The notes below the pieces were generated by a model. That model was not told the origin of the DNA, did not search any database, and saw only the letters and a program-made list of their open reading frames with translations. Positions 22,302 through 63,713 of a stretch of 64,000 nucleotides of DNA are shown here, piece by piece. Both the position numbers and the translations under genes were made by a program. Every line of letters begins with the position of its first letter. Positions within the stretch are counted from its first letter, which is position 1. The DNA is taken from the NCBI GenBank assembly GCA_036788695.1, contig DAIQMY010000001.1:313773-377772 (forward strand), in the 5' to 3' direction. Origin of the DNA: Candidatus Levyibacteriota bacterium. GTDB taxonomy: Bacteria > Patescibacteriota > Microgenomatia > Levybacterales > GWA1-39-11.

Positions 22302-22334
22302 TAAAAGAGATTTTTTAGTAACTATATTTTAAAA

Positions 22335-32838: not shown

Positions 32839-32851
32839 AGTGCTCAGATAA

Positions 32852-33721
32852 TTAGATTAATTTACTATTTCCCTTTAACTTTTCCAGTAATGCATTTAAC
32901 TCGCCTAGTGCTTTTGCCGCCTCATCCTTGTTGGGGGCCTTGCCGTGCCAGAGATAATCATTTTCCATAAATGACACGTTTTTACCAGGAATTGTGTGTG
33001 CTATTATACAGGTTGGTCTTCCATGTGTTTTTCTAGCACTTTGAACAGCTTGGACAAATCCCGCCATGTCATGCCCGTCTACTTCATACACGTTCCAGTT
33101 AAATGATTCGTATTTTAATCGTAAAACTTCAAGGGGCACAATTTTTTCTGTAAGTCCATCTATTTGGATCATATTTCTATCAATTACTACAGTAAGATTA
33201 TCTAGCTCATATTTAGGTGCAAGCATCACTGCTTCCCACGTGTTGCCTTCTTGGTGTTCACCATCTGAGGTAAGACAATATACATGCCAATCTTTTTTAT
33301 CCATTTTTGCAGCCAAAGCCATTCCTATAGCTTGAGACAGTCCTTCTCCAAGTGGTCCTGAAGTGTTTTCAACTCCTGGAGTAACCCCTCTATGAGGGTG
33401 TCCTTGGAGTGGAGAATTAATTTTTCTAAGCGTATTTAGCCAATCAAGCGGGAAATACCCTGCTTTTGCGAGAGTGGCGTATAGGACGGGGCATATATGA
33501 CCATTTGATAGAACTAGTCTGTCTCGGTCTTCCCATAATGGTTTTTTAGGATCTTTGTTGAGAATATGAAAATACATACAGGTAAAGATATCTGACATTC
33601 CAAGTGACCCTCCTGGATGACCCGAGCCTGCTTCTTCAAGCATTTTTATAATCAGTATTTGAATTTCTGTTGAAATAACTTGCAGGCTATAGATTTCTTG
33701 TTGTGTAATGTTTGTAATCAT
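32852..33721 (-). CDS. Transketolase, N-terminal (TPP-binding) subunit of split enzyme
   Basis: 289 aa. GHPGGSLGMSD, SDGEHQEGNTWEA (thiamin-diphosphate binding). Confidence 0.85.
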   Translation of the reverse strand: MITNITQQEIYSLQVISTEIQILIIKMLEEAGSGHPGGSLGMSDIFTCMYFHILNKDPKKPLWEDRDRLVLSNGHICPVLYATLAKAGYFPLDWLNTLRKINSPLQGHPHRGVTPGVENTSGPLGEGLSQAIGMALAAKMDKKDWHVYCLTSDGEHQEGNTWEAVMLAPKYELDNLTVVIDRNMIQIDGLTEKIVPLEVLRLKYESFNWNVYEVDGHDMAGFVQAVQSARKTHGRPTCIIAHTIPGKNVSFMENDYLWHGKAPNKDEAAKALGELNALLEKLKGNSKLI

Positions 33722-33758
33722 ATAAAATATTGTTCAAAAAGACACAAGTAAAGTATTA

Positions 33759-35042
33759 TTAGTATTTATACACGATAAATAAATCTGAAACATTGCTGGG
33801 TAGTCTTCCTGTTTCGATTCCATCTCCGACTTTTTCAAAAAAAACGAGACTATCATTCTTTTGGAGACTTGTGTTTATGTCCAATTGTAATTCTTCAGCG
33901 CGTGTTTTTGTGCTCGTATCTCCAATTGCGCCCGCAAGTTTACTGTTATCCCAACCATCTGAATCAAAGGAACACAGAATTGTGCTTTCAGGCATATCCT
34001 CAAGTGTTCCCAAGACTACTTCTTGGTTTCTTCCTCCTGCCCCCCCTCCCGCTACATGCACTGTGGTTTCTCCTCCTGCAAGTAGTATGCTTTTGGGTTT
34101 TGTGAGTTCAATAAGTGTTTTGCCCGCGGTTTTTGCTTCATGCTCAAATTTATCGCTATAGATTTCTGCGTCAATTTGGAATATATGTGCCTTATCTTGC
34201 ATTGCTGATAAAGCACTATTATTTGAAAGCATTATGATATTTGTAATATTTTGAAATAGTGATTTTTCTTTTGGGGTTTCAAGAAGGGAATCTAACGCAA
34301 ACGGTAAGACTTTTTGCATGTTATACTTCTCAATTATTGCTTTTGCATCAGCCACAGTTCCTTCATCATACACTGTAGGACCAGAAGCTATTACCGACAA
34401 GTCATTTCCTGGTACATCAGAAAAGATAAGACTTACAACACGGGATGGGAAAAGTGCCTTTGCGAGTCCTCCACCTTTAACTTCTGACAAATGTTTCCGA
34501 ACAGTGTTCATTTCAGATATTGTTGCACCAGATTTGAGAAGTTCTTTATTGACTTCTATTTTTTGATCAAGCGATATTTTATTTGGTGCGACAAGCATTG
34601 CAGAGCCGCCACCGCAGATAACTACAAGAACTAAATCCCTTTCATTTAGTTGGAGGGTTGCTAAGCGTTTTAATAATGCTTGGGTGAATGCGGCATTTAT
34701 TGTGGAAGGAAGCGGATGAGACCCATTTGTGAAATGAATTTTTGTAAACTGTTCAGGATTTGTGTCTATTACGTGTCCTTCTGTAAGTTTTTCACCTAGT
34801 TTTTCCTCAATAATCTTTGCAATGCCTGCGGATCCCTTCCCGAAACCAACAAGAAAAACTCTTTCAAATAGTGATATGTCAAATGATTGATCTGAGATAG
34901 TTAACATGTTTCCAATCAGCTTGAAGTTGTTATTCATTACGTGGTTAGGCTGGATTGACATGAAAGCTGCTTCTACAAGCTCTAAAACTATTTTTCTTTC
35001 ATTGGTAGTTGAAAGCGTGGATACGTTTTTAATAAAAGCCAT
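33759..35042 (-). CDS. Glycerate 2-kinase / hydroxypyruvate reductase-like (MOFRL family)
   Basis: LLAGGETTVHV..GGAGGRNQE signature of the MOFRL family. Confidence 0.65.
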   Translation of the reverse strand: MAFIKNVSTLSTTNERKIVLELVEAAFMSIQPNHVMNNNFKLIGNMLTISDQSFDISLFERVFLVGFGKGSAGIAKIIEEKLGEKLTEGHVIDTNPEQFTKIHFTNGSHPLPSTINAAFTQALLKRLATLQLNERDLVLVVICGGGSAMLVAPNKISLDQKIEVNKELLKSGATISEMNTVRKHLSEVKGGGLAKALFPSRVVSLIFSDVPGNDLSVIASGPTVYDEGTVADAKAIIEKYNMQKVLPFALDSLLETPKEKSLFQNITNIIMLSNNSALSAMQDKAHIFQIDAEIYSDKFEHEAKTAGKTLIELTKPKSILLAGGETTVHVAGGGAGGRNQEVVLGTLEDMPESTILCSFDSDGWDNSKLAGAIGDTSTKTRAEELQLDINTSLQKNDSLVFFEKVGDGIETGRLPSNVSDLFIVYKY

Positions 35043-35107
35043 GTATCTAGTATCTAGTATTTTATATCTAGTATCAAGTATGTTTGATGGTGCCAGATTG
35101 CAGGTTT

Positions 35108-35857
35108 CTATTTTTGTGTTTTACCGTGTTTCCAGTTGGCTGATTTCAAGAAAGTAGAGTATACATCATCGTCTATGTCTATGTTGGATGCTGATATTTC
35201 CGCGTCTGTTGGGTTGTGTTCTTGGAAGACTACAAATGGGACATCAGTAATTACACTAAGTGGTGTTTGTTCTATTGTTTCTCCCATAAGGACAACTGCG
35301 GCGGCTGCAAGTCCGTCCATAATGTTTACTTTTGTCATTTTAAATTCCCGACCAAAAAGATCTTTTGAGCCGATATGGTCATTTATTGCCTGAAAACCGC
35401 TGTGTGCAAGTCCAATTCCCGTTACTCCCCATCTAAGCGGTGTAGTTTTACTGTCCGTAATAAGAATTCCTAAGTTTTTAATTTTATGTTTTTCTCTTAA
35501 GTAAGTACGAATTTTATTTGCGCTTTCTTGTGCATTTTTTGGCCAAAAAACAAAATAGCCATTCGTATTTGATTCATCAATCCCCGCTGTTGCGGCTAAA
35601 ATATTATTCTTAATAGTAATATACACCCCGTATTTGTTTTCCTCTTTTGGAAGATATAAATTAGCTTCGCGCGCAACCAATTCATCTTTTGTAGATGCGG
35701 ATTCAGGAAGCATGTTTCCTTCACAGATTGCAACTATTTTTGAGGTTATAGCAATAATTGAGTTTTCCTCAAGCGGGGGCAGATACATATCTAGTATTGG
35801 GAATATATCAGTATCTTCAGCTGTGATCTTATGAGTCTTTATAGATATAATTTGCAT
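35108..35857 (-). CDS. CofE-like (F420-0:gamma-glutamyl ligase family fold) protein
   Basis: IAITSKIVAICEGN and ITDSKTTPLRWGVTGIGLAHSG resemble CofE-family motifs. Function in this organism is unclear. Confidence 0.4.
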   Translation of the reverse strand: MQIISIKTHKITAEDTDIFPILDMYLPPLEENSIIAITSKIVAICEGNMLPESASTKDELVAREANLYLPKEENKYGVYITIKNNILAATAGIDESNTNGYFVFWPKNAQESANKIRTYLREKHKIKNLGILITDSKTTPLRWGVTGIGLAHSGFQAINDHIGSKDLFGREFKMTKVNIMDGLAAAAVVLMGETIEQTPLSVITDVPFVVFQEHNPTDAEISASNIDIDDDVYSTFLKSANWKHGKTQK

Positions 35858-35860
35858 GAT

Positions 35861-37471
35861 TTACCTTGCGTATGGGTTACTCAATTCTCCGGCAGATGGA
35901 GAGACTTTGTCAACAAGTATTGATTCTCTTGCATGCAGTGTTTTTATGTCAGGGACTCTTTGAAACACTAGTCCTACAGAAATAGCATAAAGAATTCGTT
36001 CTATATTTCTTGTGATTGATTTTCTGTCAGATAAATTATCGGGTTCAAACATGCCATTACCTTTACACAACATTCTAACTCCACCCTCACCCTCTGGAAA
36101 TCGTATTCTTCCTTGTTCATCGAAGCTATCTGGCCTCCATGTTTTAGCTGAATTTGATGCTTCACCCCCATATAATACCCACCAATTTTTTTGGGGATCT
36201 TCAAAAACATATTTTCCACTCCCTGCAATACTTACTCCTATCTCTCCTGGTTTTGATAAGTAATGAGCTCCGAGAGAAAGTGCAGTTATCATATGACTTC
36301 CAACCCCACCACCCTCAATCCCGATAGGTACTTGCAAGTTTGCTTCGCGTAAATCATAAAGTAGGTTTGGTGTATTCACTGGGATATCTGCATTTATTGA
36401 TGTAGTACATTGACTTCCTCCAGCGACTCCAATAATTATTGAGTCACAGCCTGCATTAACGGCTGCTCTTGCAGTTTTTACGTCCATTATTTGACCTGCT
36501 ATCACATTGACAGAATTTTTTTGAAAGCTTGGATGCTTTCTAAGTGCGTCTACCGTTTCTACTATTTCATGTCCTCCTTCGGGAGAATAAATTCTAAACA
36601 TAGTGCAGCCCTTTTCAAGTAACAATTCAGATCGTTTTATTCCTTTGGGAGATGCTTCAATAGCTGCTCCAACATTTTTGATCCAGGAGTTTCTTAATGT
36701 GTCTATGTAATCTTTATATGCTTTTTCAGGTTTAAATTCTTCAGAAGATCTCCCTTGTATTTCCCAAAATTTTATTAAATCACTTTCAGTAGGTGTCATC
36801 ATTTCTGTAATTGGGTAAGTTCTTAAATCATCTATAACCTGTCCTATTAAAAGTGCTTGCTTTTTTGGATCTCCCCATATTTTATCTCGGGATGCTGTAA
36901 CCATTACTCCTGACTGCGCTGCCTTTCTGTAGGATTCTCTGCTTGCCACATCAGGAACTGCTCCAAGCATAATAGGCATTCTTCCTTGTCCCATGATTGG
37001 AACGTTTAAGAGGCTAGGATATGCATCTTGAGATCTACTAATTCTTTTTTTTCCTTCAGGAGATGGTGAAGTAGTTCTCAGGTCGTCAAATGAAACAATT
37101 TGTCCTTCAGATTTTAAACTTCGCATGACCGGAGAAGTAGCCTCTGAGTTTATTGGGTTTGTAAGAGTTGCCTGAATCCTTTCAAGAAATTTTTCAGGAG
37201 TGTTCCATTGGTCTATGTCTTTTTTTTCTGACTCCTCAATAGTATGTTTTATTTCTTCAGGGATTTTTATAAGACGGGTACCTTCAGGCAGTAATTTATG
37301 ATCATGGGTGGATATTAGAGGAATTTCCCCCATAACTAATGCATGATCAATGTCTGTTTTTAACAATTCTGCAATAAGCGCTGTTTGGGAGACATAGTGC
37401 GTTAATGCTCCCAAGCTTTCTCTTGTTGGGTTATATTTTCTAGATTTATTCTCTGTATCCAAGGGGTGCAT
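35861..37471 (-). CDS. IMP dehydrogenase/GMP reductase-family TIM-barrel protein with long N-terminal extension
   Basis: IIGVAGGSQCTTS (catalytic CTT loop) and IGIEGGGVGSHMITALSLGA (phosphate-binding). 536 aa, with an unassigned ~250-aa N-terminal region. Confidence 0.5.
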   Translation of the reverse strand: MHPLDTENKSRKYNPTRESLGALTHYVSQTALIAELLKTDIDHALVMGEIPLISTHDHKLLPEGTRLIKIPEEIKHTIEESEKKDIDQWNTPEKFLERIQATLTNPINSEATSPVMRSLKSEGQIVSFDDLRTTSPSPEGKKRISRSQDAYPSLLNVPIMGQGRMPIMLGAVPDVASRESYRKAAQSGVMVTASRDKIWGDPKKQALLIGQVIDDLRTYPITEMMTPTESDLIKFWEIQGRSSEEFKPEKAYKDYIDTLRNSWIKNVGAAIEASPKGIKRSELLLEKGCTMFRIYSPEGGHEIVETVDALRKHPSFQKNSVNVIAGQIMDVKTARAAVNAGCDSIIIGVAGGSQCTTSINADIPVNTPNLLYDLREANLQVPIGIEGGGVGSHMITALSLGAHYLSKPGEIGVSIAGSGKYVFEDPQKNWWVLYGGEASNSAKTWRPDSFDEQGRIRFPEGEGGVRMLCKGNGMFEPDNLSDRKSITRNIERILYAISVGLVFQRVPDIKTLHARESILVDKVSPSAGELSNPYAR

Positions 37472-39035: not shown

Positions 39036-39398
39036 ATGAGAACTGAAGTGCCACAGTTTGAGAAACTTATAAATGCTAATTCACCACGCCGTGAAGATTT
39101 TGGACCAGGAAAGGCAGGTGGTGCAGCCTACTTGCTAGTTCTGAAAAAGGAGCCTTGTGGCTTCATCGCAAGCGACCCCGTTAATAAGCAGGGCGGGAGC
39201 ATAGCGTGCGGTAAAGAGTCAATAGCTACATTAGATTTTGATTTTCCAATTACTAATGACTTGGAACACATTCCTGTATGTTCAGAAGAGCATTTTAGGT
39301 TAGTTCAAAATTCAATTAAAGAAGAGATTACTAACCTGGGTGAGTCGGGGGGCAGACCATGGATTTCATTTGGGATAAACGGATGGGGGCGTCATTAA
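39036..39398 (+). CDS. Hypothetical protein
   Basis: 120 aa, Gly/Cys-containing. No recognisable motif. Overlaps the downstream convergent gene by 4 nt. Confidence 0.35.
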   Translation: MRTEVPQFEKLINANSPRREDFGPGKAGGAAYLLVLKKEPCGFIASDPVNKQGGSIACGKESIATLDFDFPITNDLEHIPVCSEEHFRLVQNSIKEEITNLGESGGRPWISFGINGWGRH

Positions 39399-40138
39399 GA
39401 TAAATACCCACGTTTATGAAGCCAGTTATTAATAATAGCAATGTTCTCATTAATAGTTGTATTTGTAGTATCTACAATTAGGTCGAATAAATTTTCATCC
39501 AAAGCGTCTCCTGATTCTTCATTCAGCTCAAGCATTTTGCGAAAAATTCCCGCGTCACTTTTGTTTCTTTCTATGGTTTTTTCAAGTACCTCTTTGTAGT
39601 CTATGCCTTCTCTTTTAGCAATTCTTCTCGCAGATTCTTCAACTGTTGTTATAAGCTTTATTTTTAAAATGCCCAAGTCTTTTTTTTCTTTCATTTCTTG
39701 CTGCAAGGCAATAATAGGACCTAGCCTAGAGTCAACAATAACAGGTCTTCTTTGCCTGCCATGAATTACACCTGTGGCATTCCTGATTACAAGTCTTCCT
39801 AACGCATTTAGCTTATCATCTATTTCAGGTTTTCTATCTATTGCCCCAACCACTATATTTCCGGTAGTAGCATAGTGGATTTTTTTGAAGATCTTCCCAA
39901 CGTCGACAAATTCTGCTCCATGTTGTTCTGCAAGAGCTCTACCCACAGATGAGGTTCCTGTTCCCGCCCAACCTGCAAGTTCAATAACGTTATAGGATGG
40001 AGAAAGTAAATCAATTCCTTTCGGTTTTTCAGATAATTTCATTACTGTCAGCTTAGATTGTTCAATTCCCATATACATATTATAGGTTCTTAAATCCCGG
40101 AAAGCAAACCTTGGGTAACATTTGTGAAAAATAAACAC
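39395..40138 (-). CDS. Cytidylate kinase-like P-loop kinase
   Basis: IELAGWAGTGTSSVGRALAEQHG resembles the Cmk P-loop region. True start probably the internal Met (MKLSEK, ~40042), since the P-loop would otherwise sit 50 aa in. Confidence 0.45.
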   Translation of the reverse strand: MFIFHKCYPRFAFRDLRTYNMYMGIEQSKLTVMKLSEKPKGIDLLSPSYNVIELAGWAGTGTSSVGRALAEQHGAEFVDVGKIFKKIHYATTGNIVVGAIDRKPEIDDKLNALGRLVIRNATGVIHGRQRRPVIVDSRLGPIIALQQEMKEKKDLGILKIKLITTVEESARRIAKREGIDYKEVLEKTIERNKSDAGIFRKMLELNEESGDALDENLFDLIVDTTNTTINENIAIINNWLHKRGYLS

Positions 40139-52527: not shown

Positions 52528-53013
52528 TTATTGTATTCCCTTAAAAGTTACGATGTCTCCTTTTTTTATGTTATTTTTCTTAACTTCCCCCGCGTTTACT
52601 TCTAGAACATAATTTGAATCTTCTGAAGGTTTATAGATAGGAAGTGCTGCAGTATTTTGTTCTTTGCTTGGAGCTTTTGCATTTTCGACTATATCTACAA
52701 TCTTGGTATCGTTTATAAATAATATATCAATCGGGAATTTCATATTTTTCATCCAAAATGCAGGTTTTGATTTTTCTTGAAATATAAATAACATGCCTGA
52801 GTCATTTGGGAGACTATTTCTGTCAGATAATCCTTTTTGTTTGTCTTTTTCTGTTTTGACCACAATAAGTTTGTATGTCTTATTTTGAATCGTAGCTGTT
52901 GTACTGCTACTTCCGCCTCCACCCCCAAAATTGAGAAAATTTGTTCCGCGAGTAAGCATAAATATGATAACAACAATTACTAGTAAACCGTAAAACAGTA
53001 AGACTTTTTTCAT
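52528..53013 (-). CDS. DUF192-family protein (membrane-anchored)
   Basis: N-terminal TM, Gly/Ser linker, then GMLFIF...FWMKNMKFPIDILFI...YVLE motifs of DUF192. Confidence 0.55.
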   Translation of the reverse strand: MKKVLLFYGLLVIVVIIFMLTRGTNFLNFGGGGGSSSTTATIQNKTYKLIVVKTEKDKQKGLSDRNSLPNDSGMLFIFQEKSKPAFWMKNMKFPIDILFINDTKIVDIVENAKAPSKEQNTAALPIYKPSEDSNYVLEVNAGEVKKNNIKKGDIVTFKGIQ

Positions 53014-53513
53014 TTTAGCTCCTTCTTTTTTCTGATCAGGTCTGTTGTAGAGTATTGGGGAAGGCGGTCAATTACTTCAACTATTTTTCCTCCTACCATT
53101 TTTGCCTGTTCCACTTTTTTATTATAGGCAGGATCTCCTGACGTGACAGCAATTATATCAGGTTCTATTTTTTTTACAAGATCGTAATACTCTAGGTCTT
53201 TCTTTAATTCTGGAAGCAGGAGAATGTAATCTACACATTCAATCTCACTAAGAATTCGTGCTCGCTTCTTCTGTGTATTAATTGGTCTTTCACTACCCTT
53301 CCATTTTTTAATAGATTTATCGCTTTCAAGGAGTATCAGGATTACATCTCCTTGTTCTTTGGCCTTTTTGAGAAACAGAATATGTCCTTCATGAAGAATA
53401 TCAAAGCACCCGCCCACAAGTACTAATTTGCCTCGGGATTTGACTTGACTCAATTTGTTTGGCAGAGTATCTTGTGTAATTATTTTATCCATGTGCTCTT
53501 GCGTAGTTCTCAT
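53010..53513 (-). CDS. Cytidylyltransferase-like nucleotidyltransferase (RfaE domain II/TagD-like, HxGH)
   Basis: LVGGCFDILHEGHILFL (HxGH). ~165 aa. Confidence 0.65.
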   Translation of the reverse strand: MRTTQEHMDKIITQDTLPNKLSQVKSRGKLVLVGGCFDILHEGHILFLKKAKEQGDVILILLESDKSIKKWKGSERPINTQKKRARILSEIECVDYILLLPELKKDLEYYDLVKKIEPDIIAVTSGDPAYNKKVEQAKMVGGKIVEVIDRLPQYSTTDLIRKKKELK

Positions 53514-53534: not shown

Positions 53535-54968
53535 TTATCCCTCTTTTGTGCCACGTAGGAATATTGCTTGCCACGGACGATACACTGATTTATAGCTGTC
53601 TGCAATAACAACTTTGCCGTTTTTTGTCACTTTTCTTGAGAAAACAACAGTTGCCCCATCTGCTGCAAAATCTACTTGTTTTACTTGTCCTCGCGGAAGA
53701 GTAGGATCATCTTGATAAGATGCTTCAGGGGCTGGTGTTTGACTTGTTATAACAGGCGTACTCATAGATACTTCCCTTCCGTCACTTTTCCCGTAAAGGT
53801 TAAACGTAAGTCTTAGGTTGGCAAGGTCCGTATGAGCAACTATAAGTATATAATTTCCCGTGTCGTTTTTAAATTTTAAGTCTACGGTTGGATAATATAC
53901 CGTAGCGTCTAATCCTGGAGGGGAATCTTGCTCGTAATATCCAACTCTATACGCGTGAGCAACACGATTGGTAATTGGCAGACCAGCATTTAACAACGCT
54001 CTAAAAAGTGTAGTTGATACTTGGCATACTCCTCCTCCGTCACCTAACACAGTTTTGCCATTTTGAATAATGTAGGCTTGTTGATAGCCGGTAAATTGAG
54101 TAACGTCACCAAGGTTTTTTACAAATGAAAACTCCTCTCCAGGGGGAACGAGTACACCGTTGATTTTTCCTGCAGCAAGAGCTACATTATGAATTCTACC
54201 TGGAATTGAGTGTGCAAAAAGAGAGGTTCCTTCACCAATTTCTTCAACTATGCCTAGATTATTTGCTTTTTCTGTTGGGATATTTGGTTTTAAAATTTTA
54301 AGCGGAATAGGAAGCGTGACAGCTTTTATTTTTCCGCTTATTATTTCCGGAATTTTTTGGTTAATATTTTTTTCAATGGTATCAAAATCTATAGTGCGTC
54401 CATCAACGGACTCCCTAAACGCAATAACCTTTTTGTCTTTGATTTCAAAAAGCGCATCTTGAGCGGATATGTGAATTTCTTTTTCGATTGGTGCAAGTAG
54501 TTTTGTTGTCTTATCTAAACTACTTGTGTATGACGGATTTAAATAAGTTCCATTAAGATATGAATTAAAAATGTAATAGATATTGCTTACTATATCTTTA
54601 TTTTTCCCTATGCTCTCAGCTTGGGATACCATAAGTTTTACGTCATACCCTATTCCTAGTTCTTGCGCAGAAATTGTGGCGATTCTATTGTCCTCACTTT
54701 TAAAAGTAATGGTGCTTTTGCCAATGTTTTTATTTTTTTCTTCAAAAATTCTTGTTACCTCATCTGCAGTTTTTTCACCAACATAAGTGTTTCCAAGAAA
54801 AATGCCCGGAATAACTTTATTCTTATACGTCACCTTAAAGTAGATAAGAAAAAATGTAGCGAGGCAAAAACTAGCAAAAAACATTCCAATAATAAACCAA
54901 AAAATTGGTGTTATGTATTTGCTTTTTTTGTTTTTTTGTTCTTTTTTTGAAGAATTTTTTTCTTTCAT
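53535..54968 (-). CDS. VanW-family protein with N-terminal TM anchor and C-terminal G5-like domain
   Basis: GGGVCQVSTTLFRALLNAGL..R..H core of VanW (PF04294-like). Confidence 0.65.
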   Translation of the reverse strand: MKEKNSSKKEQKNKKSKYITPIFWFIIGMFFASFCLATFFLIYFKVTYKNKVIPGIFLGNTYVGEKTADEVTRIFEEKNKNIGKSTITFKSEDNRIATISAQELGIGYDVKLMVSQAESIGKNKDIVSNIYYIFNSYLNGTYLNPSYTSSLDKTTKLLAPIEKEIHISAQDALFEIKDKKVIAFRESVDGRTIDFDTIEKNINQKIPEIISGKIKAVTLPIPLKILKPNIPTEKANNLGIVEEIGEGTSLFAHSIPGRIHNVALAAGKINGVLVPPGEEFSFVKNLGDVTQFTGYQQAYIIQNGKTVLGDGGGVCQVSTTLFRALLNAGLPITNRVAHAYRVGYYEQDSPPGLDATVYYPTVDLKFKNDTGNYILIVAHTDLANLRLTFNLYGKSDGREVSMSTPVITSQTPAPEASYQDDPTLPRGQVKQVDFAADGATVVFSRKVTKNGKVVIADSYKSVYRPWQAIFLRGTKEG

Positions 54969-55039
54969 ATGTTTGCAAAATCAATCGTCACTATTATACT
55001 ATAAATAGACATGGTTTTTCGTATGCCATTGCTTGCAAT

Positions 55040-56461
55040 ATGGATCCTAACAATTCAAACCCACAAACACCACAGCCTATACCTGTACAGCCTGTTTCAA
55101 CGCCTCAGCCACATATAGAACATGAAGAGGGTGGAGGAAAGCGTAAAATAGTAAGTATAGTTATTGGACTTGTCGTATTAATAGTAATATTTTTATTCGT
55201 TTTTCTGGTGATTATTCCAAAATTTTTTTCCAAGAATAATAATCCTGTAACTCTTACGTATTGGGGTTTATGGGAAGAGCCTTCAGTCATGAATCAAATA
55301 ATCGCAGATTTTAATAGAGAATACCCAAATATAAAAGTAACATATGAGCGACAGGATATTAAGGTGCTAGGAAAATATATTGACAGATTGCAAACTCGCA
55401 TTGAAAATGGGAATGGTCCGGACATATATAGATTTCATAATAGCTGGCCTTTGGAGTTAAAGGGTTATCTCCTTGCGCTCCCAAAAGATGTTGTTGATTC
55501 TTTGGAGTTGGATACGCAATATTATGATGTTATAAAAAAAGATATAAAGATAAACGGCGCATATTATGGAGTTCCGCTAGGGATAGACACTTTAGCACTT
55601 TTTTACAACGTAGATTTATTTAAAGCGGCTGATATTGCTCAACCACCTTCAAGCTGGAACGATCTAACAGATATAGCTGCAACACTTACCGTACCCGATG
55701 AGGAGGGAAAGATTAGAACAGCAGGTATTGCATTGGGAACATATGATAATATCTATCACGCATCAGACATAATATCTTTATTATTCGTTCAAAATGGTGC
55801 GGACTTATATAATTTGGCGGGTCCCACAAAACAAAATGCTATTGATGCATTGGGGACATACTACACATATTTTGCAAAAGGGGATGAAGCAGGCAGGGGG
55901 AAGACATGGGATTCAGGCATGGAAAACTCAAAGCTCGCGTTTGCAAACGGCAAATTGGCTATGTACTTTGGATACTCATGGGATATATTTGAGATAAAAG
56001 GAAAAAATCCAGATCTAAACTTCAAAGTGACACGAGTGCCCAATTTGCCTCCAGACAGAAATCAAACAATAGCGTCTTATTGGGTCGAGGGCATTTCTTC
56101 AAAGACAAAGCACCCAAAAGAAGCCTTTATTTTCTTAAAATACTTGGGGAAGAAGACAACGCTTGAGAAATTATATACTCTTGAATCAAAAACACGTCTT
56201 TTTGGAGAACTTTACCCAAGACGCGATATGAAATCGCTTCTTGCAAATAATCCGCTTCTGATCCCATTCCTGGAGCAAGCGGATAGGGCAGTTGCGACAC
56301 CATTCTCATCTGATACATACGATGACGCAATGAACTCAGCACTAAATACATACTTGGGGAATGCTGTAAATTCAATACTTAATGGGGCATCTCCCGAAAC
56401 CGCGATTGACACTTTGGGTGCTGGAGAAACTCAGGTACTGCAAAGATATAATTTTCAATGA
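55040..56461 (+). CDS. Extracellular solute-binding protein (ABC-type, family 1), TM-anchored, orphan
   Basis: Start ATG 55040 (MDPNNSNPQ...). N-terminal TM helix. SBP_bac_1-like body. No permease/ATPase genes nearby. Confidence 0.65.
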   Translation: MDPNNSNPQTPQPIPVQPVSTPQPHIEHEEGGGKRKIVSIVIGLVVLIVIFLFVFLVIIPKFFSKNNNPVTLTYWGLWEEPSVMNQIIADFNREYPNIKVTYERQDIKVLGKYIDRLQTRIENGNGPDIYRFHNSWPLELKGYLLALPKDVVDSLELDTQYYDVIKKDIKINGAYYGVPLGIDTLALFYNVDLFKAADIAQPPSSWNDLTDIAATLTVPDEEGKIRTAGIALGTYDNIYHASDIISLLFVQNGADLYNLAGPTKQNAIDALGTYYTYFAKGDEAGRGKTWDSGMENSKLAFANGKLAMYFGYSWDIFEIKGKNPDLNFKVTRVPNLPPDRNQTIASYWVEGISSKTKHPKEAFIFLKYLGKKTTLEKLYTLESKTRLFGELYPRRDMKSLLANNPLLIPFLEQADRAVATPFSSDTYDDAMNSALNTYLGNAVNSILNGASPETAIDTLGAGETQVLQRYNFQ

Positions 56462-57375
56462 AAAAAGAAACATTTAAATATTCTGTATTAAAAACACTTT
56501 GTTATTCGCAGGTATTCTCTTATCCATTAACAATTCATGAGTTATGGAAGTATCTGATAAGTGATAAAAAAATTTCATATCAGGAATTTTTATTGCGCTT
56601 TTATAAAACGCGTCAAGATTTTGAACAGATTGGAGAGTATGTGGTTCTTTTTGGCGATAAACATTTAGTTACGCAGAGACATTCCCGCGCTTATGAATCT
56701 AAGCGCAAAATGGCAAAAGCACACTGGATTAGTCAGTTTTTGTCAGTTATTCCCACGATTAAATTAATCGCGGTTTCTGGCAGTCTTTCTATGTTTAATG
56801 CAAAAAAAACGGATGATATAGATTTATTCTTCATAACATCAAAAAATTCCTTGTGGATTAGCCGTTTTTTAGTTAATTTAATACTTTTTTTCCTTGGAGA
56901 AAAGAGGGGGAGAAAAGAGAAGTATGCTAAGGATAAAGTATGTCCTAACATGTTTATTTCAGAGGACCGTTTAACTATCAGTAAGAAAACTATGTATACG
57001 GCTCATGAAGTGGCACAAATGAAAGTAATTTTTTCAAGAGAGGATGTTGTCTTAGACTTCTTTACCGCAAACAAATGGGTATTAAAATTCCTTCCCAATG
57101 TATTTGTTCTAGGCAAAAAGCATAAGAAAGAAAAAAGTATCCACTCTGGTTTTTTACTTCAAGCGATTGAAAAATTTTTCTACTTTGTTCAACTTCAATA
57201 TATGAAAAAAAGAATTACTCACGAGACTATTAAAAAAGACGTTGCGGCATTTCATCCTATTCAAAATGATAAGATTATCCAAATGCTTTATACATTAAAG
57301 GTAAATACACAAATAAGTATAATACAAGACAAAAATAGGCACAAAAGTAACCACTCAACCACCGTTGTAAACTAA
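56458..57375 (+). CDS. Nucleotidyltransferase-fold protein (Pol-beta/LicD-like GS...DDID motif), function unknown
   Basis: VSGSLSMFNAKKTDDIDLFFI. 4-nt overlap with the upstream SBP gene. Confidence 0.4.
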   Translation: MKKETFKYSVLKTLCYSQVFSYPLTIHELWKYLISDKKISYQEFLLRFYKTRQDFEQIGEYVVLFGDKHLVTQRHSRAYESKRKMAKAHWISQFLSVIPTIKLIAVSGSLSMFNAKKTDDIDLFFITSKNSLWISRFLVNLILFFLGEKRGRKEKYAKDKVCPNMFISEDRLTISKKTMYTAHEVAQMKVIFSREDVVLDFFTANKWVLKFLPNVFVLGKKHKKEKSIHSGFLLQAIEKFFYFVQLQYMKKRITHETIKKDVAAFHPIQNDKIIQMLYTLKVNTQISIIQDKNRHKSNHSTTVVN

Positions 57376-58062: not shown

Positions 58063-59820
58063 ATGTCAGCACATCAAGGAGAAAATTCAATAAAAAAAGA
58101 CATAAGTACTCTTGCGGTAACTCCTTTCATTCAGGACTATAAATCCTTTTATTCGTCTTTTTCGTGGGATGAATCTATTTCATCTATTTCATTTTTTGAA
58201 GATGGTACTCTCAATGCAGCTTATAACGCTGTAGATAGGCATGCAAAGGAAGGTAAGGCTGAGCGGGCTGCTCTTTTGTGGGAAGGTAGTACTGGAGAAA
58301 AAGAGACATATACATACTCAGATCTTTCAAAAAAATCCAACCAATTTGCAAATGTTTTGACATCTTTTGGTGTGGGTAAGGGGGACCGTGTTTTTGTTTT
58401 TCTTCCAACAATTCCAGAGCGGTATATAGCGTTTTTAGGTATTTTAAAAACAGGAGCAATTGTGGGAACTCTTTTTTCAGCATTTCAGGAATTAGCCCTT
58501 TTAGACAGGCTTTCTGATAGTGGAGCAAAGATTGTTATAACAAATGAAGCACTATATCCTCGTATTCAGAAAATAGAAAAAGATCTTCCTTCTCTTGAAA
58601 AAGTAATTATAGTTGAGCGGGGAAGCGTTGCTCATCCTCAAGGTGACCATATTGCATCTTTTGAAAGAGAAATGGAAAAGGCTGCAGTTAGTTTTGATGT
58701 GGCACACATGAAGAAGGAGGACTATTCTTATATGCTTTACACATCTGGAACGACAGGAAAACCTAAGGGAGTTGTTCACTCTCACTTTGATGTGCTACAG
58801 GCAATGTTAACTACAAAGTATGTCCTAGATTTACACGATGATGATATTTATTGGTGCACAGCTGATACAGGATGGGTAACTGGAGTTGTATATGGGGTGT
58901 TAGGACCTATGTGTCTTGGCGTTACATCTGTTATTTTTGAAGGAAGATATAGTCCTACAGCTTGGTACACAATACTTCAAGATTACAAGGTTACTGTTTG
59001 GTATACAGCTCCTACTGCAATAAGAATGCTTATGGGGTCAGAAGTACAACCAAAGAATTTTAATTTGTCTTCTCTTCGGGCACTTTTTAGTGTGGGTGAA
59101 CCGCTGAATCCGGAGGCGATTTGGTGGGGGCTTGAGGCGTTTGGGCTTCCATTTCACGATACCTGGTGGCAGACGGAATTGGGCGGAATGGCAATTGTAA
59201 ACTATGTATCAATGGATATTAAACCAGGAAGTATGGGAAAGCCTTTTCCCGGAATTGTTGCGTCAGTGGTAGATGAGAATGGAGAAGAAGTAGAACAAGG
59301 CAAGATTGGCAGTCTTGTTATAAAGCCTGAAACTGACCCATCACTTATGGGAGAGATTTGGCACAATAAGGAAAAATTTGATTCGTACTTTAAAGACGGA
59401 TGGTATGTTTCAGGAGACAAAGCATATATTGATAATGATGGCTATTTTTGGTTTGTTGGGCGGGCAGATGATCTCATAAATACTCAGGGAGAAAGAGTTG
59501 GACCGTTTGAGGTGGAAAGCGCACTAGTTGAATATCCAGATGTTGTTGAGGCAGGTGTCATAGGAAAGCCAGATGAGATGCGGGGTGAAATAATTAAAGC
59601 CTTTGTTGTCCTCAAGCCAGGTATAGAAGGGACAGATGAGCTAAAGGAGAAAATTGCACAACATGTGAAGAAGAACTTAGCGGGTCATGCATATCCACGA
59701 GAAATTGAATTTATTGAGAAGCTTCCTAAAACAAGATCTGGGAAAATAATGCGAAGGCTCTTGAAGTCTCGCGAATTAGGTTTACCTGAAGGTGATACTT
59801 CAACCCTTGAGGACTATTAA
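58063..59820 (+). CDS. AMP-forming acetyl/acyl-CoA synthetase
   Basis: AMP-binding signature YTSGTTGKPKGV. Acs-like C-terminal PKTRSGKIMRR (acetylatable Lys motif). Confidence 0.85.
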   Translation: MSAHQGENSIKKDISTLAVTPFIQDYKSFYSSFSWDESISSISFFEDGTLNAAYNAVDRHAKEGKAERAALLWEGSTGEKETYTYSDLSKKSNQFANVLTSFGVGKGDRVFVFLPTIPERYIAFLGILKTGAIVGTLFSAFQELALLDRLSDSGAKIVITNEALYPRIQKIEKDLPSLEKVIIVERGSVAHPQGDHIASFEREMEKAAVSFDVAHMKKEDYSYMLYTSGTTGKPKGVVHSHFDVLQAMLTTKYVLDLHDDDIYWCTADTGWVTGVVYGVLGPMCLGVTSVIFEGRYSPTAWYTILQDYKVTVWYTAPTAIRMLMGSEVQPKNFNLSSLRALFSVGEPLNPEAIWWGLEAFGLPFHDTWWQTELGGMAIVNYVSMDIKPGSMGKPFPGIVASVVDENGEEVEQGKIGSLVIKPETDPSLMGEIWHNKEKFDSYFKDGWYVSGDKAYIDNDGYFWFVGRADDLINTQGERVGPFEVESALVEYPDVVEAGVIGKPDEMRGEIIKAFVVLKPGIEGTDELKEKIAQHVKKNLAGHAYPREIEFIEKLPKTRSGKIMRRLLKSRELGLPEGDTSTLEDY

Positions 59821-60482
59821 TCTATTACGTTGTTTGTGAATAAAGACTCAAGGATTGAAAATGCTTTATTCACGTCTTTTTTGTTTACCACAAAAGTAAA
59901 TTCCAAGTGTGCTGAAACAATTTCAACTATGTTAATTCCTTCCCAGGCAAGCGATTTTAGAAGTGAGTAGAGTATTCCTGGAGAATGAATTGAGCTTTCT
60001 GGTAGTTGAATTGTGATAGAGGAGAGGTTATTAATTTTCTCTGTTATTTTTTCATTATCTAGTATGCTGCATGCCTTCTCCTCTATATCGTTACTAATTA
60101 TAATAGATGTTTCAAAGACTCCTTGGGTGACGGTTAGAAAGTATTTAGCTTGACTATCAGATAACTGTAAAAGAGTAGGGAGTATTTTCGGTAAAGATTG
60201 TGAGTTTAGGACAACTATTTCCGAAAGATTTGATTTTAATGTCATGTTAGGTGGTGCAGTAAATATATCTGTAGATTTATAGTTTGGCCTGATTGTTGTG
60301 GAAAGTCTATTCAACGCCATGATAAGTGATGCTTCACTTACTGTTTTTTTAGTAAGTTGTTCTACTTCTGGTTGAATATAACGTGCAAGAGCTGAAAAGT
60401 TAATAATTCCTTTAGAAATAGCCTCAGAAAGATATCTGGAGCGCGAAATGATAATCTCAACTGCAGAAGATATGCTAACCAT
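59817..60482 (-). CDS. Tandem ACT-like domain protein (aspartokinase regulatory-domain-like), hypothetical
   Basis: C-terminal PGILYSLLKSLAWEGINIVEIVSAHLEFTFVV resembles an ACT beta-alpha-beta-beta-alpha-beta unit. An upstream half resembles a second unit. Confidence 0.35.
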   Translation of the reverse strand: MVSISSAVEIIISRSRYLSEAISKGIINFSALARYIQPEVEQLTKKTVSEASLIMALNRLSTTIRPNYKSTDIFTAPPNMTLKSNLSEIVVLNSQSLPKILPTLLQLSDSQAKYFLTVTQGVFETSIIISNDIEEKACSILDNEKITEKINNLSSITIQLPESSIHSPGILYSLLKSLAWEGINIVEIVSAHLEFTFVVNKKDVNKAFSILESLFTNNVID

Positions 60483-60537
60483 ATTTTGTTAAAATTTTAA
60501 CACAATATATATAATTTGTCAATATTTTATAGAAAAT

Positions 60538-60566
60538 TGACATACTATAGGAACCTTCGTATACTT
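60538..60566 (+). promoter_or_regulatory. Sigma-70-like promoter for the GNAT-like/HDAC-like/PPAT-DPCK cluster
   Basis: TTGACA (60538-43), 17-nt spacer, TATACT (60561-66). Confidence 0.5.
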
Positions 60567-60601
60567 GCTTTATCAATTCAGCTATACATTATAATAAATG
60601 T

Positions 60602-61666
60602 ATGACTGATACAAGAGATATGGGAAAAGAAATAGTTTCAAGCACTGGGCGTATGGGTATAGATACCCGATCAGACAATAGATTTTATTGGAATGTGAGG
60701 CAACCAATGCATGATGCAAGCAGGGTTGAAAAGGGGTTTGATAGGCTTGCGCAAGTAAAAAATATAAAACCTTCTCGAGAGAACCAGTTTGATTTTCTTG
60801 ATTCCTCAAAGAGACGGGATGTTATGAGATTTATTGCAACTGGAGAAGTTGCAGAGCAGCTAATTAATCCCAGCAATCCTTTTTCTGGAAATGTAGAGGT
60901 TGCTTTTCCGATTTCGGATGGTGATTGGTATATAAGCCTGGGTAGAAACGGAGAAGATAGAAAAACGGCTCTTTCTATGGATGAATTAATTCAGGAGACA
61001 GCTGTGCCTGACAGGCAAAATTATCCAGCAGCAGCAGTGGAAAAGGTGTTGAAGGAAGGGTACTCGTTTAGGACAGACCTTTCAAGCCCTCAAGTGCGGG
61101 AACAAGTATTAGGATTATGGGATAATACTTTTGGTTGGACAACGGAAGAGATTTGTAATTTAGAAAAAAGTTTAAAGGAGCAGGAGAAAACTGGAGAAAA
61201 GAATGTATGGTTCAGTGCTTTGCAAAAGCCTATTTTAAAAGATAAAGTAGTTGTCGCAGTCGGTATGGCGGAGAAAATCAAATTTACAAGAAGTAATGGT
61301 AGACCAATTGATATTATAGAATTAACTGAATGGTCTGTAGATGAAGGAAGTCGTGGGAATGGATATATGCCTGCAACGGTAACTCAATTAGCAGCCCAAG
61401 TGTTAGATTCATACCCCATAGAAGAGAGAAAAAGAGATATCTTACTTATAGCAGAGTGCAATATTGGAGCGTATGCTCATAAAACAGGTTACAAGGCAGG
61501 ATTAACAGTACCTGAAAGAGTTGTTCCACAAATATTGAAACAGAATGTAGATGTAAATGGTATTTCTTCAGACTTTGCCTTTATGTATATTTCTCCATCA
61601 TCTCTTGCAAAAAACTATCCACCAGAGGTGGTAAAACAAATATTAAGAGATACTGAGGTAAAGTAA
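60602..61666 (+). CDS. Hypothetical protein with C-terminal GNAT-like acetyltransferase motifs
   Basis: SRGNGYMPATV (motif A-like) and NIGAYAHKTGYKAG (motif B-like N-x2-A-x3-Y-x-K-x-GY). N-terminal ~200 aa unassigned. Confidence 0.4.
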   Translation: MTDTRDMGKEIVSSTGRMGIDTRSDNRFYWNVRQPMHDASRVEKGFDRLAQVKNIKPSRENQFDFLDSSKRRDVMRFIATGEVAEQLINPSNPFSGNVEVAFPISDGDWYISLGRNGEDRKTALSMDELIQETAVPDRQNYPAAAVEKVLKEGYSFRTDLSSPQVREQVLGLWDNTFGWTTEEICNLEKSLKEQEKTGEKNVWFSALQKPILKDKVVVAVGMAEKIKFTRSNGRPIDIIELTEWSVDEGSRGNGYMPATVTQLAAQVLDSYPIEERKRDILLIAECNIGAYAHKTGYKAGLTVPERVVPQILKQNVDVNGISSDFAFMYISPSSLAKNYPPEVVKQILRDTEVK

Positions 61667-61667
61667 T

Positions 61668-62630
61668 ATGAAGTTTCCTATTATCTATTCTTCCCAACAC
61701 AAACAACACGCTCCGTTATTTGAGATATATGACGATGTGAAAGAGGAATATTCTGAAAAGCCTGCGCGGATTGAGACAATTAAAGAAAAACTTGAACAAG
61801 AGAATGCGGGGCAATTTTTTTCTCCTTCTAAGTTTCCCTTGGATCATATAAAGAAAATACATCATTATGCGTATATAGATTTTCTGAAGAATCGTTCAAG
61901 ACTTTTAAAAGAAAATGAAGTTTTATACCCTTCATATTTTATAACTGATACGTATATTGCAATTACCCCTGGAACATACGATGCAGCTGTCGAGTCTGTA
62001 AACATAGCACTTACTGGTGCACAGAAAGTACTTGATGGTGAAAAACTTGTCTACTCTCTTTGTAGGCCTCCAGGACACCACGCAGAAGAAAGAAGTATGG
62101 GTGGATATTGTTTCTTTAATAATGCAGCAATCGCGGCAAATTTCCTAACTCAAAAGGGTAAAGTTGCTCTATTGGATATAGATTTCCACCACGGAAATGG
62201 AACGCAGCAAATATTTTATGAGAGAAGCGATGTTTTATATGTATCTATTCACGCTGATCCAAAAGAAAAATATCCATATAAAACTGGTTTTATGGATGAA
62301 AGCGGGAAAGGAGCAGGAGAGGGTTTTACCGTAAATTATCCATTGCCACTTGGCGTAACAGATATTAATTACATGTCAGTACTGAAAGATGCACTTTCCA
62401 AAATCACAGAATTTAATCCTGAATTTATTGTATTATCAGCCGGATTTGATACCTATGAAAACGATCCAATAGGGGGATTCAAGCTCACTGTCCCATTTTA
62501 TGAGGCTATAGGTCAAGAAATAAAGGCGTTAAATACTTCCACTCTTGTTGTGCAGGAAGGTGGATATGCTGTAGATGCATTAGGGGAAATGGCTTACAAT
62601 TTTCTAAAGGGATTATCTTTTACTTCATGA
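61668..62630 (+). CDS. Histone deacetylase-family (AcuC/acetylpolyamine amidohydrolase-like) deacetylase
   Basis: GYCFFNNAAIA, DIDFHHGNGTQ, LSAGFDTYENDPIGG: the three HDAC signature blocks. Confidence 0.85.
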   Translation: MKFPIIYSSQHKQHAPLFEIYDDVKEEYSEKPARIETIKEKLEQENAGQFFSPSKFPLDHIKKIHHYAYIDFLKNRSRLLKENEVLYPSYFITDTYIAITPGTYDAAVESVNIALTGAQKVLDGEKLVYSLCRPPGHHAEERSMGGYCFFNNAAIAANFLTQKGKVALLDIDFHHGNGTQQIFYERSDVLYVSIHADPKEKYPYKTGFMDESGKGAGEGFTVNYPLPLGVTDINYMSVLKDALSKITEFNPEFIVLSAGFDTYENDPIGGFKLTVPFYEAIGQEIKALNTSTLVVQEGGYAVDALGEMAYNFLKGLSFTS

Positions 62631-63559
62631 GATATAGATTGGCTGCATTGGGTGGAACATTTGATAGATTACACCGTGGACATAGGGATTTTCTTCAATT
62701 TTCACTTTCCAAAAGTGACTATGTGGTGTTAGGGCTTACCTCAGATGCTTATATTAAAAAATATAAAGATGGACTTGGAGTTGAACCTTACGAAGCGCGG
62801 GAAAAAAACCTCCAGATATTTTTACAATCGATTCAGAAAGAAAGTAGAGTAAAGATTGTGTCAATTGATGACCTGTTTGGTCCAACAATTTTACCTGAAT
62901 ATAAGTTTGATGCACTTATTGTAACCCGGGACACCATAAAAGGTGGAGAAGAGATAAATAAGAAAAGAAAAGAGATGGGGCTTTCAGACTTATCAGTGGA
63001 AGTTTTTTCTTTAACAAATGAAGTTTACGGTGTTCCGATTGCATCTTCAACAATACGAAAAGTAATTTTTGCTCTTCCCGCAAGTCTACGTTTTCTACTT
63101 CAGGAGCCATGGGGAAAAGTAACTGAGAAAGTTCCACGCAATATAGAATCGGAGAAAACTATTACTGTAGGGGATGTAACTACAAAAATGTTTTTAGATC
63201 AGGGGATACATCCCAGACTTGCAATAATTGATCTCTATATAGAGCGGGAGTACGCTGTTAAAAAAATTGAGGAATTAGGTTTTTCTAGTAGTCAACCCGT
63301 AGTGTATGTTAAGAATCCTGCTGCAACTATTACCCCCGAATTAGTAATTGCTATCCGTGAAGCACTTTTAAGCAACGAAGATTCACTTATCATTGTTGAG
63401 GGAGAAGAGGATCTAGCGGTTTTGCCGGCTTTGCTTGAGGCGGATAATGGGTATTCAGTTTTTTATGGGCAGCCAGGTCAAGGGATGGTAGAGGTAAAGG
63501 TAAATGATAAAGTTAAAAAGAGTGCGCAGGATTTACTCGCCAAGTTTGACAAGAAATAA
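62627..63559 (+). CDS. Fusion: archaeal-type phosphopantetheine adenylyltransferase (N-terminal) + DUF359-like GTP-dependent dephospho-CoA kinase (C-terminal)
   Basis: N-terminal LGGTFDRLHRGH (HxGH cytidylyltransferase). C-terminal VGDVTT...IVEGEEDLAVLPA, reminiscent of archaeal DPCK (DUF359). Confidence 0.55.
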   Translation: MRYRLAALGGTFDRLHRGHRDFLQFSLSKSDYVVLGLTSDAYIKKYKDGLGVEPYEAREKNLQIFLQSIQKESRVKIVSIDDLFGPTILPEYKFDALIVTRDTIKGGEEINKKRKEMGLSDLSVEVFSLTNEVYGVPIASSTIRKVIFALPASLRFLLQEPWGKVTEKVPRNIESEKTITVGDVTTKMFLDQGIHPRLAIIDLYIEREYAVKKIEELGFSSSQPVVYVKNPAATITPELVIAIREALLSNEDSLIIVEGEEDLAVLPALLEADNGYSVFYGQPGQGMVEVKVNDKVKKSAQDLLAKFDKK

Positions 63560-63656
63560 ATCCTTTGGTAACATGGATATACAAATGAAATTTCTAACCA
63601 TCCTCAAGAAGATTAAGAAAACCCCATAGGGGCTAGATCTTTTTGTGAGAGAGCTA

Positions 63657-63681
63657 GACCCCGAGCAATCGGGGTTTTTTT
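63657..63681 (+). terminator. Rho-independent terminator
   Basis: CCCCGA-GCAA-TCGGGG followed by T7. Preceded by a second hairpin at 63623-63632. Confidence 0.75.
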
Positions 63682-63713
63682 GTGTCTCAAAACTATAAGA
63701 AAGGAGGGTAAAA

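Follow-up and report, generated by a model that had tools for sequence, protein, structure and literature searches.

How does a candidate-phyla bacterium carry out the last two steps of coenzyme A (CoA) synthesis, and how many genes does it use for them? The question is raised by a 64,000-nucleotide stretch of DNA (the window) from a Candidatus Levyibacteriota bacterium (contig DAIQMY010000001.1, positions 313,773 to 377,772, assembly GCA_036788695.1). An initial annotation, made from the letters of the window alone, had described the gene at 62627–63559 as a fusion of an archaeal-type phosphopantetheine adenylyltransferase (PPAT) with a DUF359-like, GTP-dependent dephospho-CoA kinase (DPCK). 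It had also pointed out a bacterial, CoaE-like P-loop kinase elsewhere in the window (21732–22301), which was taken to indicate either redundancy or a different role for that kinase. The first proposal is supported by our analysis. We estimate a probability of about 85% that the fusion gene encodes a bifunctional enzyme for the last two steps of CoA synthesis.

Two archaeal-type domains in one reading frame

The open reading frame of the fusion gene runs without interruption from an ATG start through 310 codons to a TAA stop, and all the motifs quoted for it (HxGH, VGDVTT, and EGEEDL) were found as reported. The profile search that the initial annotation had proposed as a check was carried out, and both DUF359/PF04019 and the archaeal PPAT model passed their cutoffs.

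For the N-terminal half, Pfam placed CTP_transf_like (PF01467) on residues 8–145 with 47.9 bits (gathering cutoff of 21). The NCBIfam model for PPAT, NF001985, covered residues 3–145 and, with 128.5 bits, exceeded the curated cutoff of 104. A sequence search of the PDB returned the archaeal PPAT of Archaeoglobus fulgidus (3do8; E = 4.9e-10, residues 6–145), and Foldseek matched the predicted structure of the fusion protein to the same entry (E = 3.6e-9, target-normalised TM-score of 0.75–0.83, 26–27% identity). Inspection of the protein sequence revealed GGTFD at residues 9–13, HRGH at residues 16–19, and SSTIR at residues 140–144. The last of these lies within an ISSTxxR-type motif (residues 138–144), which we take to belong to the nucleotidyltransferase superfamily. 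Conservation was assessed on an alignment of 55 fused homologues, with identities down to 38%. Gly9, Gly10, Thr11, His16, Gly18, and His19 were invariant in 55 of 55, and Ser140, Ile143, and Arg144 were kept in at least 90% of them. On these profile and fold matches, the N-terminal domain is assigned to the archaeal/eukaryotic-type PPATs (NF001985/COG1019), as had been claimed for it.

For the C-terminal half, DUF359 (PF04019) was detected on residues 185–307 with 119.7 bits (cutoff of 25, E = 7.7e-35), spanning profile positions 1–125 of 126. This match falls within the segment of about residues 160–310 to which the DUF359 similarity had been attributed. The NCBIfam model for the GTP-dependent DPCK of Thermococcales (NF041125) aligned residues 147–307 with its positions 2–169 of 176 (E = 2.3e-26). 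Because this alignment spans residues 147–307, the kinase domain is complete and abuts the PPAT domain directly, with essentially no linker. The PDB sequence search retrieved the GTP-dependent DPCK TK1697 of Thermococcus kodakarensis (8jvc; E = 7.5e-19, residues 157–307). The Foldseek matches of the fusion model to 8jvc and 8jvg had E values of 5e-15 to 2e-13 and target-normalised TM-scores of 0.77–0.82.

TK1697 depends in vivo, in T. kodakarensis, on Asp48, Asp67, and Asp125: the D48A and D67A variants lose function, and D125A is impaired (Shimosaka et al. 2019, PMC6650551). Their equivalents in the fusion protein are Asp183, Asp202, and Asp262 (Table 1). Asp183 sits in VGDV(TT) at residues 181–186, and Asp262 in EGEEDL at residues 258–263. 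All three are invariant in the 55 fused homologues, and the same holds for Arg207, Gly259, Glu260, and Leu263, for Tyr280, Gly281, Gln282, and Pro283, and for Arg155 and Gly163 of an LRxxLxxPxG segment in the N-terminal part of the kinase. Since the catalytic residues and motifs are invariant or kept in at least 90% of the 55 homologues, both active sites look intact and under selection. By profile, fold, and catalytic residues, the C-terminal domain is placed in the DUF359 GTP-dependent DPCK family, in agreement with the initial annotation.

The AlphaFold2 model of the fusion protein was built on the 55 homologues and reached a mean predicted local distance difference test (pLDDT) score of 88.8. 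Its Foldseek matches in the PDB ranked the TK1697 structures first (8jvc, 8jvg, and 8jvf), followed by 3do8 and then by many bacterial CoaD PPATs.

Proposed reactions and points against them

By analogy with the characterized enzymes, the PPAT domain would use ATP to adenylylate 4′-phosphopantetheine, and the DUF359 domain would then phosphorylate the 3′-OH of the resulting dephospho-CoA, which yields CoA. The phosphate donor of the second step would probably be GTP, as for TK1697. The DUF359 domain would act as a Rossmann-like kinase, kin of thiamine pyrophosphokinase, and not as a P-loop kinase. More speculatively, the fusion may keep the two steps stoichiometric or channel dephospho-CoA, and the reduced-genome host would run the enzyme on salvaged phosphopantetheine or pantetheine, not on a full de novo pathway. 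A bona fide acetate–CoA ligase is encoded 2.8 kb upstream of the fusion gene (58063–59820; NF003313, 817 bits, cutoff of 729), which indicates that the cell uses CoA.

Several points weigh against the bifunctional assignment or parts of it. The equivalog cutoff of NF041125 was missed (92.4 bits against 300), and the Thermococcales equivalog model for PPAT gave 73 bits against a cutoff of 290. As these models are specific to a clade of one archaeal order, the shortfall says little on family membership, and equivalog cutoffs are expected to be out of reach at about 30–35% identity. The predicted template modelling score (pTM) of the fusion model is 0.57, so the orientation of the two domains is not fixed; the model is unreliable on the inter-domain geometry, and channelling is therefore purely conjectural. 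The phosphate-donor specificity is not readable from the fusion sequence, and we know of no enzymology for any bacterial member of the fusion family. The scan of approximately 55 open reading frames in the window revealed no PanK, CoaBC, CoaD, or CoaE; this absence holds for the 64 kb of the window only, and the salvage part of the proposal is likewise conjectural.

The gene at 53010–53513 on the reverse strand was considered as a bacterial CoaD and rejected: its product, with 115 bits, is RfaE-domain-II-like, and its matches comprised no model for a bacterial CoaD. This 167-residue protein of the cytidylyltransferase superfamily is nearest to RfaE domain II (heptose-1-phosphate adenylyltransferase), below the equivalog cutoff, and its gene is followed by a DUF192 gene.

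The P-loop kinase as a candidate second DPCK

If the kinase encoded at 21732–22301 were a working CoaE-type enzyme, the host would possess two DPCKs, or this kinase would be the real DPCK and the DUF359 domain an accessory. Such redundancy draws on a weak similarity to CoaE, seen in the match to PF01121 (E = 4.4e-4) and in the best CoaE structure, that of Legionella (4ttp; E = 0.008, 19.6 bits), and on the names of close homologues, which are "dephospho-CoA kinase" in Joint Genome Institute (JGI) records and in some NCBI records. However, the PF01121 match covers profile positions 2–85 of 180 and stays under the Pfam cutoff (20.4 bits against 27); the NCBIfam matches at E ≤ 0.01 included no model for a dephospho-CoA kinase. 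The top Pfam match was AAA_18, with 35 bits. The kinase is much nearer to the Sulfolobus UPF0200 protein SSO1041 (AdkA-like; 3lw7/3h0k), its best PDB match, which aligned over the full length (E = 3e-13, 53 bits). The P-loop (G11-AFGSGKS18) is conserved, and its GxxxxGK(S/T) form is generic to P-loop kinases.

In 2011, Walia and colleagues reportedly located the catalytic Asp of CoaE in the DxD motif after strand 2, where it is Asp32 in the M. tuberculosis enzyme. In a short and weak alignment, this motif (YAD in Legionella, DLD in Thermus) falls on Arg33-Leu34-Ser35 of the kinase, and position 35 is variable (Ser in 34% of 120 homologues). The alignment thus suggests, with moderate confidence, that the catalytic Asp of CoaE is missing.

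Judging by its N-terminal similarity, SSO1041 presumably belongs to arCOG01045, and the kinase would belong there with it. Like the kinase of the window, SSO1041 and TK1334/TK2192 (probably the same arCOG01045 group) are P-loop kinases distantly related to CoaE. The two T. kodakarensis proteins have no DPCK activity, and their function was left open (PMC6650551). This argues against redundancy, to the extent that the kinship, which we infer, applies to the kinase of the window.

The kinase gene lies between two adenylate-kinase-family genes, 3′ of secY and 5′ of map, and this order recurs in a 55%-identical relative (secY-adk-kinase-cmk-map). The conserved slot in the ribosomal-protein operon, with adk on one side and cmk/adk2 on the other, speaks against a second DPCK, as does the invariance of the catalytic triad in the DUF359 domain. 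Because the gene sits among nucleotide kinases, a nucleotide-kinase role is suggested. On the sub-cutoff PF01121 match, the missing DxD Asp, the closer relation to SSO1041, and the conserved secY-adk-kinase-cmk/adk operon, we rejected the kinase as a bona fide bacterial CoaE. Redundancy is improbable; a nucleotide-kinase-like role is more likely, and the protein does not appear to be a second DPCK. The P-loop described in the initial annotation is present, but the bacterial CoaE type did not hold, and of the two roles considered there, the different role is favored.

The adenylate-kinase-family gene, the UPF0200-like kinase gene, and the second adenylate-kinase-family gene are consecutive at 21180–22907, within the ribosomal-protein operon. 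A relative (L084, 3456–5276) has a cytidylate kinase in the third position; the window's own cytidylate-kinase-like gene is found at 39395–40138. The secY-adk-X-cmk order recalls an archaeal arrangement. A database entry 100% identical to the kinase comes from a Candidatus Levybacteria genome bin.

Other substrates and artefacts

The two domains of the fusion protein could also act on another substrate pair, with the N-terminal domain as a RibL-type FAD synthetase, an NMNAT, or a sugar- or glycerol-phosphate transferase, and with DUF359 phosphorylating the product. PF01467 is indeed a broad superfamily, and weaker matches to RfaE domain II, TagD, and ethanolamine-phosphate cytidylyltransferase were obtained. 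However, the PPAT-specific model passes its curated cutoff, whereas every other family model stays far under its own. The nearest solved structures are PPATs, archaeal ones first and bacterial ones next. The sole characterized DUF359 member is a DPCK, the enzyme of the step right after PPAT (PMC6650551), and an RfaE-II-like transferase is already encoded separately at 53010–53513. We regard other substrates as very unlikely. A reading of the fusion as an artefact of assembly or gene calling, or as a functionless decaying relic, has nothing specific in its favor beyond the source of the DNA, a metagenome-assembled genome, and is effectively refuted by the unbroken frame, the matching GC content (0.38 for the gene against 0.37 for the window), the identical architecture on many independent contigs and samples, and the invariant catalytic residues.

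Host and distribution

Besides the fusion gene, the window encodes RecA/RecX, RpoA with the bacterial C-terminal domain, EF-Tu, MurB, topoisomerase I, RNase Y, and TsaD. Markers such as RecA, RpoA, EF-Tu, MurB, and topoisomerase I make the host bacterial. The closest relatives of the fusion protein (82–95% identity) come from Levybacteria, a phylum that the NCBI taxonomy places within the Microgenomates group of the Patescibacteria group. The host is a bacterium of Candidatus Levybacteria (Patescibacteria), and an archaeal-form PPAT with DUF359 in a bacterial window bears out the earlier statement that an archaeal-type enzyme occurs here in a bacterium.

All of the best 120 homologues in a word-index search carried both PF01467 and PF04019, at lengths of 299–360 residues. 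A HMMER search over 1.84 billion cluster representatives gave 8903 matches at E ≤ 1e-3 and 1377 at E ≤ 1e-30, and nearly all of the best 150 representatives (E ≤ 1e-90) aligned end to end with the fusion protein. The two-domain layout, at roughly 300–360 residues, was common to all of these 150. The fusion is thus present in at least 150 clusters at 50% identity, and probably in over 1,000. The size of the family at E ≤ 1e-30 and the end-to-end alignment of nearly all of the best 150 point to purifying selection on the fusion.

A genome scan with one genome per species returned 80 loci. End-to-end fused matches came from Levyibacteriota, other Patescibacteria, Microgenomates, and Roizmanbacteria, from Poseidoniales and Thalassarchaeaceae (marine group II archaea), and from a few bins labelled Gammaproteobacteria, Pseudomonadales, or Vitreimonas. 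The standalone PPAT or DUF359 matches in this set were all archaeal, except for one contig labelled Bifidobacteriaceae. A search with the C-terminal domain alone yielded 18 standalone DUF359 proteins, and the four that carry an organism name are all archaeal.

Six oddly labelled bins (L007, L009, L014, L018, L021, and L076) contain full-length PPAT–DUF359 fusions at 41–48% GC. L009, L018, and L021 grouped with the Patescibacteria loci L010 and L011 in the trees of both domains, and L007 and L014 were placed with standalone sequences from archaea. RarA, downstream of the fusion, and a nearby Elp3 are common to L018 and L021. In the window and at the oddly labelled loci alike, Rfam found tRNAs only. 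The proteobacterial bin labels are doubtful: either the bins are misnamed, or further bacterial phyla possess the fusion.

Neighbour-joining trees were calculated for each domain. In both, the marine group II fusions formed a clade of their own, with 98–100% bootstrap support. The trees were otherwise star-like, and clades of all fused or of all bacterial fused sequences appeared in 0 and in 0–2 of 100 bootstraps, respectively.

Some fused homologues appear to be longer and may carry further domain additions. The open frame of Roizmanbacteria locus L034 (9497–10984) extends approximately 165 residues upstream of the match. Protein P0386 (530 residues) has about 190 extra N-terminal residues, and P0369 (435 residues) matched the profile in three separate stretches.

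Comparison with known CoA synthases

The eukaryotic CoA synthase COASY has a PPAT fused to a P-loop, CoaE-type DPCK, and its PPAT is of the same archaeal/eukaryotic type. COASY carries out the same two consecutive reactions in the same order on one polypeptide. Since the DUF359 fold is unrelated to the P-loop CoaE-type kinase of COASY, the likeness in the second half is analogous, not homologous. The bacterial pair CoaD and CoaE catalyzes the same reactions as well. CoaD shares the nucleotidyltransferase fold with the fusion protein (Foldseek E of about 3e-5, target-normalised TM-score of about 0.63), whereas the identity to CoaD structures is 12–20%, and the fusion has no CoaE-type domain.

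In T. kodakarensis, the DPCK TK1697 (8jvc/8jvf/8jvg) and the PPAT TK2128 have the same folds, TK1697 carries the Asp48/67/125 equivalents, and the identity to the DPCK chains is 31–34%. TK1697 and TK2128 are encoded by separate genes, and their hyperthermophilic host possesses the whole de novo route to CoA, whereas the host of the present fusion is a mesophilic bacterium of low GC content and reduced genome. The closest architecture is that of the fusions in marine group II/III Euryarchaeota (e.g., AIF21550.1; Poseidoniales), which have the same domain order and motifs at about 320–345 residues. Five Poseidoniales loci matched the fusion of the window end to end at 29–31% identity. The difference lies in the host, which belongs here to Bacteria (Levybacteria/Patescibacteria) and not to Archaea.

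The PPAT–arCOG04076 fusion in uncultured archaea led to the prediction of the archaeal DPCK, which was followed by biochemical and genetic proof (PMC6650551; PMC6393860). Among the genes of the pan-archaeal core, DUF359 is described as the last that still awaited characterization (PMC6393860), and the defining papers treat it as an archaeal core family (PMC6393860, PMC6650551). The PPAT–DUF359 architecture is thus already published in archaea and abundant in public sequence, and it implies no new mechanism. A literature search on CoA enzymes in Patescibacteria, candidate phyla, and Levybacteria returned nothing relevant. What is added here is that DUF359 is widespread in a large candidate-phyla bacterial lineage, where it is always fused to an archaeal-type PPAT.

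A broader scenario can be outlined tentatively, and we hold it at somewhat below even odds. Levybacteria and related Patescibacteria would lack the bacterial CoaD and CoaE and the de novo pathway, and would obtain CoA only by salvage of 4′-phosphopantetheine or pantetheine through an archaeal-type, GTP-using CoA synthase. That synthase would be a cross-domain acquisition whose fusion arose separately from the marine group II one, and the P-loop "DPCK" would be a mis-named nucleotide kinase of the arCOG01045 type.

Local setting of the fusion gene

The features of the fusion gene and its surroundings are collected in Table 1.

Table 1. Positions in the window of the predicted fusion gene, its domains and motifs, its neighbours, and the P-loop kinase.
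Feature	Position	Strand	Basis or remark
Bifunctional PPAT–DPCK ("archaeal-type CoA synthase"), predicted, complete gene	62627–63559	+	310 residues plus stop; both Pfam domains in frame
N-terminal PPAT domain, residues 1–146	62627–63064	+	NF001985, 3do8, Foldseek
HxGH signature H16-R-G-H19, after G9-G10-T11-F-D	62672–62683	+	read in the sequence
I138-A-S-S-T-I-R144, ISSTxxR-type second nucleotidyltransferase motif	63038–63058	+	read in the sequence
C-terminal DUF359/arCOG04076 GTP-dependent DPCK domain, residues 147–310	63065–63556	+	Pfam, NCBIfam, PDB, Foldseek
D183, equivalent to Asp48 of TK1697 (catalytic)	63173–63175	+	TVGDV in both proteins
D202, equivalent to Asp67 of TK1697	63230–63232	+	alignment of IIDL with LYDL
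D262 in GEEDL, equivalent to Asp125 of TK1697	63410–63412	+	GEEDLA in both proteins
Terminator-like hairpin AGACCCCGAGCAATCGGGGTTT followed by a T-run, about 100 nt 3′ of the fusion stop	63656–63687	+	consensus scan; pattern match only
Histone deacetylase (HDAC)-family amidohydrolase gene, 5′ neighbour of the fusion gene	61668–62630	+	Pfam Hist_deacetyl, 263.9 bits
354-residue protein, first gene of the putative three-gene unit	60602–61666	+	no Pfam/NCBIfam family
Promoter-like site 5′ of the gene at 60602	60537–60565		score 11/12; pattern match only
ACT-domain protein	59817–60482	−	in the upstream acetate/acetyl-CoA-themed cluster
P-loop kinase, called CoaE-like in the initial annotation	21732–22301	+	189 residues

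The stop codon of the HDAC-family gene and the ATG of the fusion gene overlap by 4 nt (ATGA), and the two genes are probably co-transcribed. The HDAC-family protein is nearest to acetylpolyamine amidohydrolases (PDB 9gkz, 3q9b, and 6phr, 245–267 bits). The 354-residue protein had no Pfam or NCBIfam match; its best hint was a sub-threshold similarity to the GNAT family Acetyltransf_9 (E = 0.16), and its single-sequence AlphaFold model was unusable (pLDDT of 35.8). The promoter-like site, the 4-nt overlap, and the hairpin, which probably ends the transcription unit, suggest a three-gene unit at 60602–63559.

Neither of the two upstream genes was retained as a conserved operon partner. The HDAC-family gene is missing beside the fusion gene in an 82%-identical relative and at other Levybacteria loci, and no homologue of the 354-residue gene was detected adjoining the fusion in the relatives examined. 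Genes recurring near the fusion in relatives encode GreA, a solute-binding protein, VanW, an ACT-domain protein, and sometimes an acetyl-CoA synthetase. No recurring CoA-pathway gene and no obvious transporter pair were found among the relatives' loci examined.

The cluster upstream of the fusion gene (58063–62630) has an acetate/acetyl-CoA theme. In the 82%-identical relative, the acetate–CoA ligase gene is missing at the fusion locus together with the HDAC-family gene. Our guess is that these two genes may travel together, as deacetylation would free acetate and the ligase would activate it. Further upstream (54905–57375), the gene of an SBP_bac_1 solute-binding protein, which bears a membrane anchor at its N terminus, overlaps by 4 nt the next gene, which encodes a 305-residue soluble protein. 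This soluble protein had no family match, and its GS...DxD pattern recalls Pol-beta-type nucleotidyltransferases. In several Levybacteria (three loci), the gene of this 305-residue protein stands directly 5′ of the PPAT–DPCK gene.

Annotation of the two families

NCBI names the bacterial fusion copies only "pantetheine-phosphate adenylyltransferase". For the P-loop kinase family, public names vary: "dephospho-CoA kinase" stands in many records, and "AAA family ATPase" and "hypothetical protein" are used as well. Naming this kinase as the DPCK while the DUF359 candidate for DPCK is hidden under the PPAT name looks like a systematic mis-annotation. Because of these two names, metabolic reconstructions may credit the last step of CoA synthesis to the wrong gene. 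The main value of the present assignment lies in the correction of the annotation. In addition, a compact two-step CoA synthase would offer a handle on phosphopantetheine salvage in organisms of minimal metabolism, and the fusion extends the list of archaeal-type enzymes in candidate-phyla bacteria.

Further genes of the window were inspected alongside. The run at 31849–37471 is regarded as archaeal-flavoured. It contains a split transketolase (32852–33721 and 31849–32838), a DUF4147/MOFRL protein of the glycerate-kinase type (33759–35042), and a member of the F420-0:gamma-glutamyl ligase family (35108–35857). The 536-residue protein encoded at 35861–37471 matched the IMPDH/GMP-reductase barrel only in part. 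An SIS/bact-PGI_C isomerase is encoded at 1032–2075.

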